Source: Yuukianura sp. NJ FZ-2021
Lineage: Eukaryota
DNA length: 64,000 bases
Assembly: GCA_046563655.1 (NCBI GenBank)
Contig: CM102286.1
Coordinates: forward strand, 8,308,001-8,372,000
Reading direction: 5' to 3'
Below are positions 20,601 to 23,600 of the stretch, piece after piece (position 1 is the stretch's first letter; each line of letters starts with the position of its first letter). Both the position numbers and the translations under genes were made by a program. The notes beneath the pieces are model-generated. The model made no database searches and was not told the origin of the DNA. It worked only from the letters and a program-made list of their open reading frames with translations.

Positions 20601-23600
20601 TAATCAAAACCAGGGGTGGGTGTTACTGTTAAGATCCTACTTATTTTACTTACTAGCGTTTACAAAAACAAAGGTAAAATGAATCACAGTTTCATTCTTC
20701 TAGACCCATTCATCCCATATTTTTTTTGTTATTATTATTCACGCTTTTTGAGACTCGTTCAATAAGCAGAAGCAATCGTCACTTTCACTCTCTTGACCTG
20801 GATATGTTCTAAATCGTTTCCAGCTTTATCTGAAAAAATTTTTTTCAGCCTAACGAACCTCCTCTCGTCTCTGCCACTTTGCTTAAGACAATTTTATGAT
20901 TCGGAGCGAGTGGTGAATCACATTTGAGATGTCTCAGAAAAGGATGGTTTCGGATTTCTATAGAAAACCGGCCCAGCGCCATTTGTTTGTATTTTTCCGG
21001 CCCAATTAATAACGCTATAGAACGTTTTAAATCGCTTGATTTTTTTTCACAAATGTGCACAATGTTGCACAATTCTTTCGGCCTTGTGCAACATCAAAAC
21101 TCAAAAAGCTAAATTGTGAAACACCTGTTATTCCTAAGTAGAGAAAGCTACTTTATGGTTTGACCCTGCCTATCTGTCTGGCCGTCCATCAGTCGACGGC
21201 AATAGTTACGCCTTAAACCATTTCCATGGTGGTTGCTATTGAAAACGCAAAGTTATGCATGTTCGCCGTAAACAGTTGCTGATGTAACTGTGTGCACTAC
21301 CATTAAACTTACAACCTTTTAAAGACAACTTCCAACAAAATTTCGATAAACACGAAACTCTTGGTTTTGTGTCCCAGCAGCCCAATTATCTCCAAGCAGT
21401 CAAGCGTCAACATTTATTACACTTTAACTAACTTAACTTAACTTTCACGTAAAATATAATGCTGTTCACATTTTTAGGTCAGAGGGTTCACTTTCAATTT
21501 TCGGTTTCTTGCTAACGTTTGGATTATGTAAACCTTTAAAATTAGGTCCCCCAAAATAAAACCTGAAATGGAGAAAAAAAAGTCAAAGTTTAAAAGTCTA
21601 TTTAATATTCAATATACCCACCAAGTTTTTCCCCCAGAAATCTAGAAGTTTAGTAATGGTTTTACAATATTACTATTTATAATGCTGTTTCACAAAATCC
21701 GTAATCACCGACAATTCGTTTACCCGACGCTCTCCATTGGCACAATTTTTAGAGTGCCGGCGCCGTAGCGCTTGGTACTTTGTGCACTAACGACGTAACT
21801 TATCGTTTGACCGTCACAAACCTCCTTACATGCTTGAATGTATGCACGAAGGCCCTTTTCTTCCGGAAAGGCTTCCAGCAAACGGTACATTAGGATTTCG
21901 ATGTCAGATATCAAGTTTCGAAGTCGCTTAAATGCATCATTAAATGCCTGTTGTAGCGGGGTTCCTTCTCGTGTAACACAACGAAGTATGTAGTTCTCTC
22001 GTAATACTTCTTCTTTGACGTCTTTCAAGATCCCGAGTACATCATTGATGAGTCCACTGAAGTCCATTACTGCAGTCGTCAATAGGTTAAACAAAAGACT
22101 TTTCCTAATTTTCTTTGGGATTGATAGCCGTAGAAATACTATTGTAAGTTCTGCGCATGGACCAAACCCTGCATCGTAGCCTCGAAGAATCTTATGCATG
22201 TCTTCTGAGAGAGGCATTGGGTCCTCCGGCCTGTAGCGCAACGTCTGACACTGCAAAAGACCTATGGCATGCGGAATGAGATGTTTGACATCATCTGGAT
22301 ATCCCTCTGAAAATTCTTCGTTTATCTTCGGCATAAGATCGGCAAAGATGCGCTGGTTTTTTTCACTTTCGTTCGCACCAATTAAACCAATGAAATCCTT
22401 GAGACGGTTATCTAGGGTATCTTGGCTTGCTTTGAATGCTTTCCAATCCAAATCTACTTTGTCAATAAGCAATCGATTGGTCTCGCCAACATCCTCCAAC
22501 AAAAACTTGAAATCGTCTTCCGAATCATCAGCCATATAACCAGCTGTGCAACATAATAGAGCGAGGTCAAATCGGGTAGTACGAACGTTCAGTAATTGGA
22601 AACATCAAGCAAGCAGCCAAGAGGTAATCTTGTATGCATTTGTGCAGTTCTTCTTCGTCCAAGTTATCAAGAATGTAGCGGAGACGCTTGATGGAATCAT
22701 CCAGAATTTTAGTTTGTTCTTCCTGCGTCATGTCGAAGTAGTTTGACATTGTCATGTCTCTGAACATTATATAACAACTTAATGTTAAAAAAGATTAACC
22801 CTGGAATAATGTTTTTCAATATTGATTTTCATCTTAGACCTTACTCTTTTCGTTGAAAAAATGGAAATTCTCCGCAAAGTTGAGAAGCTTTTCCAAAAAC
22901 GGGATGATCAACAGTCCCTAAATCAAAAACAAATTTTAATTTTCCGGGTGGACATTGTGTAATACTTGTTAGACGATACGCTCCATTCTCAATTGAAACC
23001 ATTTTTGGAAGCTGTGGATAGAGCGAGTATAAAACAGTAATTGGTAAACAGAATTGAAATTGTGTCGTATATATATGAGTCCGAGTCCACATTTTCGCAA
23101 GTTACTCTCTACTTTGTAGTCGCAATATAGCTTCCAAAGCCTTACTCCTTCCTTATTTTCTTTTAGAACTAAAGATCTTATCTTGAAACCAGTTTGCCAT
23201 GAAAACTTCTCCAAAAATAATTAATTAAATTCGCAAACTCATATGAATCTGGATCTTTTACAACCAGTTTTTCCAAAACAACTTTTGTTTTTGGTCTTTA
23301 AAGACATATTACGTGTGTCTTTTTGTTTAGTTGCCTTGGTTTTTCCGAAGATTACATGAAGGTTGCGAAGGTTATAAAGGTTGTTGTGTTACCGAACCAG
23401 AATCTCTGGCCACAGTTGCATAAAGAATAGTAATAGTCTTTTCCTCCATGTAATTTACTTCTGCATTCCCATGAGAATTGTGACAAAAAAAAACTGGCAA
23501 AGTGCACAGGCTTTATCATACAATTATACATTTAAAAAAAAGATCCTATACTCCAAATGACCGTAAAAACCCCCCAAAAAAAGAAAGAAATTACATAGAA

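Follow-up and report, generated by a model that had tools for sequence, protein, structure and literature searches.

A transcribed microbial-type terpene synthase gene, probably inactivated, within an intron of a PHLDB-like gene of Yuukianura sp.

Is a terpene synthase gene of microbial type, found inside another gene of an animal genome, still a working gene? This question is raised by a stretch of DNA from Yuukianura sp. NJ FZ-2021 (GenBank assembly GCA_046563655.1, contig CM102286.1), which was analysed over its whole length of 64 kb and is referred to here as the window. An earlier note, made from the letters alone, had placed a synthase at positions 21720 to 23002, antisense to a PHLDB gene, and had taken it for a horizontally acquired and domesticated gene. 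It was found that the minus strand of 21720-23002 codes for a class I terpene synthase with the alpha domain only, on the evidence of a Pfam match, an AlphaFold model and Foldseek comparisons. The earlier interpretation is right on identity, location and intron, and too optimistic on the function of this copy and on its novelty. Within a small family, the copy in the window is probably a pseudogene or null allele that was inactivated recently and is still transcribed.

The coding segment was recovered as three stop-to-stop pieces of the minus strand: 23002-22844, which starts with ATG, 22794-22567, and 22604-21720, with 294 codons (protein P0001). The motif set and its order, as described for an open reading frame spanning 21720..23002, were borne out by a gene that is not a single open frame, being divided by an intron and by a +1 frameshift between 22604 and 22570; the earlier note had hinted at the frameshift by its word 'repaired'. 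Exon 1 (22845..23002, minus strand, 158 nt) starts at the ATG 23002-23000 and comprises 52 codons plus 2 nt. It forms an N-terminal extension that is absent from bacterial-type enzymes. The intron (22760..22844, minus strand) measures 85 nt, is of the GT-AG type and lies in phase 2, with the donor GT at 22844 and the acceptor AG at 22760; its removal joins the pieces 23002-22844 and 22794-22567 in phase. Exon 2 (21720..22759, minus strand) holds the whole catalytic alpha domain, in two frames owing to the frameshift, and ends with the stop codon TAA 21722-21720.

When the coordinates of the four motifs were re-derived, all of them, on the minus strand, lay where the earlier note had put them. 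The first metal-binding site, DDSED (DDxxD type), is at 22515-22529 and the C-terminal RY pair (R279-Y280) at 21765-21770. RGYDAG is found at 22167-22184, and the putative second metal-binding motif, NDVLGILKD, at 22020-22046, where an N-G-D variant replaces the NSE triad. The arginine of RGYDAG (Arg141) precedes Asn187 by 46 residues. An arginine 46 residues upstream of the NSE asparagine is presumably the pyrophosphate sensor, by a rule from the literature on bacterial terpene synthases. With the frame mended, the protein would comprise 398 residues including exon 1, which agrees with the length of about 398 residues expected earlier, and 348 residues from an internal ATG at 22767.

The family assignment was first of all a matter of profiles. 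P0001 matched the Pfam family PF19086, Terpene_syn_C_2, with an E-value of 2.9e-7; its 30.9 bits exceed the curated cut-off of 23.7. The frame-mended protein P0068 reached 30.5 bits. No polyprenyl-synthase family of Pfam was matched (E<=1 for P0001, E<=0.01 for the read-through). This was the outcome that the earlier note had expected from a search with hidden Markov models. Neither protein showed a Pfam domain besides Terpene_syn_C_2, which leaves an alpha domain alone, with no beta or gamma domain. A phmmer search of P0001 against 1.84 billion cluster representatives returned 51 proteins at E<=1e-3, of which 13 reached E<=1e-10 and 2 reached E<=1e-30; P0004 stood first (2e-47, 37% identity to P0001). 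P0068 (348 aa) is a read-through that carries an X at TCGT, a few bases downstream of the exact break, since the words CCAA, ATTA and ACTG at the break itself recur in frame; it aligned with P0004 across the frameshift over 343 aa, with 36% identity and an E-value of 9e-76. A word-indexed protein search found nothing for P0001, and only P0012 when the alignment was the query. A search of a language-model atlas returned terpene-synthase clusters only. As a separate observation from the search of representatives, a distant relative, P0014 (779 aa), carries two PF19086 terpene-synthase domains in one chain (E 1e-27).

An alignment of 46 rows served to build the AlphaFold2 model of P0001, which was all-helical, with a mean predicted local distance difference test score (pLDDT) of 85.1 and a predicted template-modelling score (pTM) of 0.83. 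Foldseek returned 66 matches in the PDB at E<=1e-3 among the 500 counted. All of the 35 matches listed were bacterial or fungal class I terpene cyclases, with 13-20% identity, and among these the highest TM-score was 0.67 over 276-283 columns. The isoprenoid-synthase fold anticipated for this protein was thus recovered in the model. A profile of 12 close relatives was also compared with the sequences of the PDB, with a best E-value of 1.7e-4 among 11 matches to solved structures. In these comparisons FxxDDxxD and NDxLGLxKD aligned with the Asp-rich and NSE motifs of TaTC6, Copu9 and 10-epi-cubebol synthase, and NDVLGILKD fell on NEILSLQKE, NDIFSYNKE and NDIYSLRKE of solved enzymes. Across the family alignment DDxxD is conserved, the Arg of RGYDAG is present in 32 of the 46 rows, and the RY pair is retained almost throughout (R in 42/46, Y in 43/46). 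In the second metal motif Gly replaces Ser/Thr (35/46 rows) and Asp replaces Glu (30/46 rows), and N-G-D is fixed in all 12 close relatives. Profile and predicted fold together support the assignment of the putative synthase to the microbial type (Terpene_syn_C_2, alpha-only) of class I, rather than to derivatives of polyprenyl synthases.

Transcription was assessed with read-derived contigs from four runs, of which X1, X2 and X4 were compared as DNA and X3 was treated as RNA-like. X4 belongs to another study and to another coded organism. Two X3 contigs join 22759 to 22845 (CT..AC on the plus strand, that is GT..AG on the minus strand), with 61 letters on the shorter side, and this joint is absent from the DNA runs X1, X2 and X4. 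The contigs skip exactly 22760-22844, so the phase-correct 85-nt GT-AG intron proposed from the letters is the one that is removed. The host gene of the surrounding intron shows a GT..AG joint in X3 as well, from 19597 to 19663. The depth of X3 was zero in the bins 20304-20906 and 23520-24725 of the host intron, and was found on host exons (24927-25127) and on the synthase. Because depth is restricted to exons and GT-AG joints occur on both strands, X3 behaves like RNA. Given this RNA-like run, the synthase gene is transcribed and correctly spliced. The 3' untranslated region (21601..21719, minus strand) extends to at least 21619 according to the X3 contigs 21619-21908 and 21634-21908; RNA-like contigs identical to the window reach that position. 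Downstream of the stop codon on the minus strand TATAAA (21681-76), ATTAAA (21606-01) and AATAAA (21418-13) are found, which bears out the suggestion of a candidate polyadenylation signal.

The frameshift lies at 22590-22596 on the minus strand, where seven bases stand between the Pro codon CCA (22599-22597) and the Asn codon AAC (22589-22587). Nine of the ten homologues that cover this site have two residues between Pro and Asn, and P0011 has three. Frame 0 runs into the stop codon TGA 22569-22567, frame 1 is not open upstream of 22604, and one surplus base must therefore fall within 22604-22570. The site is not a homopolymer. An X3 contig covering 22419-22692 spans the frameshift with 0 differences and 0 gaps with respect to the window, which means that the extra base is present in read-derived sequence and in transcripts, and not in the assembly alone. 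As it stands, the spliced mRNA encodes 116 residues from the ATG of exon 1 and its product ends before DDxxD, without the catalytic domain. A GT..AG micro-intron of 43 nt that would restore the frame was considered and rejected; it would remove the helix that precedes DDxxD, and no splicing is seen at this place in the X3 contig. Since the break precedes the catalytic motifs and is shared by a read-derived contig, the description of a domesticated, working gene is not supported for this copy.

The phylogeny was in line with this result. In a maximum-likelihood tree of the family (36 members with 250 residues or more; the 10 rows of the 46-row alignment that fall short of this were omitted) the window sequence was sister to P0004 (locus L001), with support of 100/98. 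Its branch measured 1.18 vs 0.46 for P0004, 2.5 times as long. The long branch agrees with relaxed constraint, though P0001 also lacks the first ~55 residues.

Several points weigh against this reading, the first three of them against a pseudogene of old age. A single lesion is present in a coding sequence of 1.2 kb that is otherwise open, no catalytic residue is lost, and three of the five coding-site differences listed are synonymous. A single lesion together with these synonymous differences implies that the inactivation is recent, or that another allele may be intact. The indels with respect to the window were taken from the best-supported ones among those listed, with 121 more beyond them, and an allele that lacks the extra base may exist. 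X3 is read here as RNA, though its automatic label was 'DNA?'. Moreover, X1, X2 and X3 go back to one sample, possibly the one that was assembled.

The alternative with most weight is that the gene is functional in the species. The frameshift would then be a private or heterozygous null allele of the individual sequenced, or an error common to the assembly and one contig, and an intact allele would give a 398-residue synthase for pheromone or defence terpenes. A lone lesion, intact catalytic motifs and a gene that is transcribed and spliced all speak for it, and so do the two divergent haplotypes seen in X1, X2 and X4. In the exon region 19500-20101 the two forms differ at 9 of 602 bases (about 1.5%), and in the flanking intron, at 20315-20577, the second form shows 33 differences and 7 gaps over 263 bases (about 13% with indels). 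One 120-base stretch within 19500-25500 is replaced by 110 other letters in the second form. The two forms at 19500-25500 suggest very high heterozygosity or divergent haplotypes. Furthermore, a single 1122-nt contig of X4 covers 21761-22866 with 112 differences and 3 gaps. Against an intact allele stand the read-derived contig that spans the site with 0 differences, a site that is not a homopolymer, and the long window branch. A gene that functions in the species is accordingly an unlikely explanation, one to be kept in mind beside the inactivated copy that is preferred here.

Further sequences alike to the synthase were found in the runs. X3 holds contigs that are 88-92% alike to it (for instance, 44 differences over 413 bases), X4 holds the 1122-nt contig given above, and no second copy was found within the 64-kb window. 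At the variant sites listed, the other letter carries most of the X1 depth. Because the flanking intron also has a divergent second form, the ~90%-alike copy may represent a paralogue, the second haplotype, or both at once. In X1, X2 and X4 there are contigs that join 20941 to 21526 and represent a form that lacks 584 bases, which points to a 584-bp insertion polymorphism at 20941-21526, just downstream of the synthase. In the DNA runs the segments 20907-21308 and 23319-23519 reached 10 to 30 times the surrounding depth, and for this reason they are regarded as high-copy repeats. Many loose ends were seen at 21135-21184.

Is the gene structure of the window peculiar to this copy? The peptide of exon 1 was located by local tblastn upstream of the synthase open reading frame in four of five related metagenome loci. 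In L001 it shares 54% identity over 50 aa (E 3e-16) and the same MVSIENGA start; the E-values for L002, L004 and L005 were 2e-9, 1e-4 and 5e-4, respectively. It was not found in L003, where the upstream sequence spans 501 nt only. The called proteins of most homologues begin only where exon 2 does, which by itself would cast doubt on exon 1. In L002-L005, however, the reading frame stays open beyond the called Met, in the upstream direction, over a conserved (Y/F)P(I/V)(P/S)N(Y/F) with no ATG, and this stretch would fit an acceptor at the position seen in the window. On the strength of the X3 splice joint and of the peptide in four of the five related loci, the two-exon structure is considered a trait of the clade. 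The intron is common to homologues of ~36% identity, which speaks for long residence in animals.

The five related loci lie on metagenome contigs with 39-42% guanine plus cytosine (GC). Their neighbours are split into exons and include ABC_tran with ABC2_membrane_3, three EamA pieces, BTB, and Band_3_cyto with four HCO3_cotransp pieces. Judging by these exon-split neighbours, the contigs are apparently animal-like and eukaryotic. Among the 51 matches, the 30 that were looked up were all on short unannotated contigs without an informative name. It may be proposed, tentatively and from sequence comparison, that the window, the five metagenome loci and P0007 form an undescribed lineage of animal terpene synthases, marked by an extra 5' exon (MVSIENGA..., VDHPxYGK), a conserved intron position and the N-G-D site. 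Such a lineage might belong to an arthropod group or to another phylum without such reports, and might have unusual chemistry.

The same features leave some room for the view that the whole clade is not a usual cyclase. According to this view, the Gly for Ser, the Asp for Glu and the added N-terminal exon would entail a different way of binding prenyl diphosphates, linear products only, or another role. N-G-D is indeed found in 12/12 close relatives and is the majority state in the 46 rows, the peptide of exon 1 is conserved, and none of the 30 relatives looked up, of the 51 matches, bears a name or has a characterised relative. However, Asp may still be able to bind Mg2+, the clade keeps DDxxD, the Arg and RY, and active cyclases have the same fold. 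A departure from ordinary cyclase function in the whole clade is therefore regarded as improbable.

Horizontal origin of the gene would be consistent with the patchy distribution of the family in the literature. A scan with the family motif of one genome each of 185,579 prokaryotic species gave 56 pattern matches and 0 confirmed relatives; as one motif was used, with tblastn at a threshold of 1e-3, distant bacterial synthases would not pass. Within this scope no prokaryote showed a relative that carries the family motif, and identity to the solved enzymes of bacteria and fungi is as low as 13-20%, so that no donor was found.

The surroundings of the synthase were those of an animal gene. It lies antisense inside a 4.8-kb intron of a plus-strand gene that runs from an FHA exon (11130-11363) to a PH exon (39223-39567), both recognised with Pfam, with long Ser/Pro-rich exons on the plus strand between them. 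The intron is bounded by the host exons 19945..20113 and 24910..25033 on the plus strand. Both have AG/GT borders and are supported by X3, the former by coverage and the latter by depth at 24927-25127. The nested antisense position that had been described, here in an intron of a PHLDB-like gene, is confirmed by these exons, which lie between the FHA and PH exons. For the PH exon, the nearest clusters of the atlas were PH-domain clusters with few recorded members, mostly arthropod, and one cluster, with a score of 0.82, was named 'pleckstrin homology-like domain family B member 1'. These matches are taken as no more than a lead for naming the host gene, which is here called PHLDB-like, and as a weak lead to Arthropoda for the host organism. 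Capture by a transposon was considered as well and was set aside, as no repeats bounding the synthase and no second copy in the window were found.

Microbial contamination or a chimeric mis-assembly was an obvious concern, given that the family is typical of bacteria and fungi. The real spliceosomal intron excludes bacterial contamination, and its joints are present in RNA-like contigs. The intron and the first exon are common to homologues on animal-like contigs, and no relative with the family motif was met in the prokaryotic genomes scanned. In addition, the X1 contigs 21551-21939 and 21151-21555, both with 0 differences, cross from the gene into the host intron, and X4 contigs lead from 22840-23082 onward to 24589-25203, which holds a host exon. 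The intron and the intronic location were thus rightly cited against contamination, since splice joints occur in X3 and the synthase is linked to its flanks by DNA contigs from two studies; a foreign or misassembled segment is very improbable. Derivation from host isoprenyl diphosphate synthases, as in beetles, bugs and termites, has the shared alpha-helical isoprenoid-synthase fold in its favour and can be practically dismissed, as there was no match to polyprenyl synthases in Pfam at the thresholds given above, all 35 structural matches listed were cyclases, and NSE-type and RY motifs are found in place of a second DDxxD.

Taken together, the gene in the window would be one copy of an animal-resident family of microbial-type, alpha-only class I terpene synthases. 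A short 5' exon would be peculiar to the animal clade, with the second exon holding the whole cyclase domain. By analogy with the family, an intact member is expected to bind geranyl (GPP), farnesyl (FPP) or geranylgeranyl diphosphate (GGPP) through Mg2+ held by DDxxD and the N-G-D motif. Clamping of the diphosphate would fall to the Arg sensor and the RY pair, and a carbocation cascade would follow from ionisation. In the window copy the extra base upstream of DDxxD would lead to a 116-residue product without the catalytic domain, and any function would be carried by the related ~90%-alike copies, which appear to be transcribed too.

Other features of the window were recorded. The coding sequence of the synthase has a GC content of 0.44, close to the 0.35-0.37 of the flanks, and 1-kb windows across the locus gave 0.38-0.40; these values count in favour of residence in the animal genome. 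A scan of the window with Rfam found nothing at gathering thresholds. On the minus strand, two identical open frames of 132 codons lie 855 bases apart (43039-43437 and 43894-44292) and have no Pfam match; since the frames are identical at this distance, a recent tandem duplication is assumed. Tandem Repeats Finder found nothing at 41-46 kb, its longest period being 500, so that a duplication of 855 bases was out of its reach. Further along the minus strand, open frames of 148 and 131 codons at 44919-45800 show a repeated spacing of Cys and His that resembles C2H2 zinc fingers, with a weak Pfam match below the cut-off, and exons of a trypsin-like serine protease are found at 48346-49549 (Pfam Trypsin, E 7.6e-12 and 1.2e-8). 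Two immunoglobulin-like exons were noted on the same strand, one at 53486-53845, judged by eye only, and one at 63712-63960, with a match to I-set below the cut-off (E 3.8e-4).

Animal-encoded synthases of microbial type explain the own pheromone and defence terpenes of some invertebrates and are a textbook case of gene gain from outside the animals. The present locus opens no new question; it adds a cleanly documented case that is nested in a host intron, spliced and transcribed. That the window copy has probably lost its function accords with the birth-and-death turnover expected in expanded families. In a clade with an added exon and a non-canonical metal-binding motif, the intact members are worth assaying.

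How does the gene compare with known systems? Microbial-type synthases had been said to occur patchily in animals, and in published descriptions they are reported for mites, springtails, sciarid flies, sponges and octocorals. For trombidid mites, families of terpene synthases gained by lateral transfer were reported in 2018 (PMC6275457). Canonical synthases with introns, RNA support and enzyme activities followed in 2024 for Sciaridae, two springtails and 12 of 15 acariform mites (PMC11665903), and in 2026 springtails were credited with 277 genes, 55% of which have introns, spread over 21 of 26 genomes (PMC13638087). Octocoral and sponge enzymes have also been published (PMC9992776, PMC12685057, PMC13483135). 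A literature search for such synthases in further phyla found none among the matches listed, and none of the 11 solved-structure matches to the profile was named as a coral or sponge enzyme. Like the octocoral and sponge synthases, the window gene is an animal-encoded class I synthase; the origin of the former is given in those accounts as microbial-like and unresolved.

The solved cyclases BcBOT2 (8h6q), TaTC6 (7w5f), Copu9 (7ofl), avermitilol synthase (9y6m) and caryolan-1-ol synthase (9c7i) share their fold with the model, with TM-scores up to 0.67. The order of DDxxD, Arg, the second metal motif (in which Lys precedes the final acidic residue) and RY is also the same in the window and in the solved bacterial and fungal cyclases. 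In contrast to these enzymes, at 13-20% identity, the window gene has an intron, an extra first exon and the N-G-D motif.

The gene also resembles the canonical synthases of arthropods (PMC6275457, PMC11665903, PMC13638087), which are described as alpha-only, Terpene_syn_C_2-type enzymes in animal nuclear genomes. By the same descriptions they form multigene families, mostly with introns, lie beside ordinary animal genes and are transcribed, and the window copy is alike in this. Low identity to microbial enzymes is common to both, the figure given for trombidid mite enzymes being 30% or less, and the 24-43% reported between Sciaridae and oribatid mites is in the same range as the identity between lineages found here. 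The window copy is frameshifted, unlike the published arthropod synthases compared, as they are described. Five short motifs of the family gave no match in one supplementary file of PMC13638087. The five characterised Sinella enzymes are described with the NSE triad NDxxSxxxE, whereas the clade of the window has NDxxGxxKD; this motif and the conserved 5' exon may set the clade apart from the arthropod enzymes as their descriptions present them. The kind of gene is thus already known in animals. What appears less ordinary, as far as the sequences tell, is a clade seen only on unannotated contigs, with an extra 5' exon and N-G-D in place of the NSE triad.

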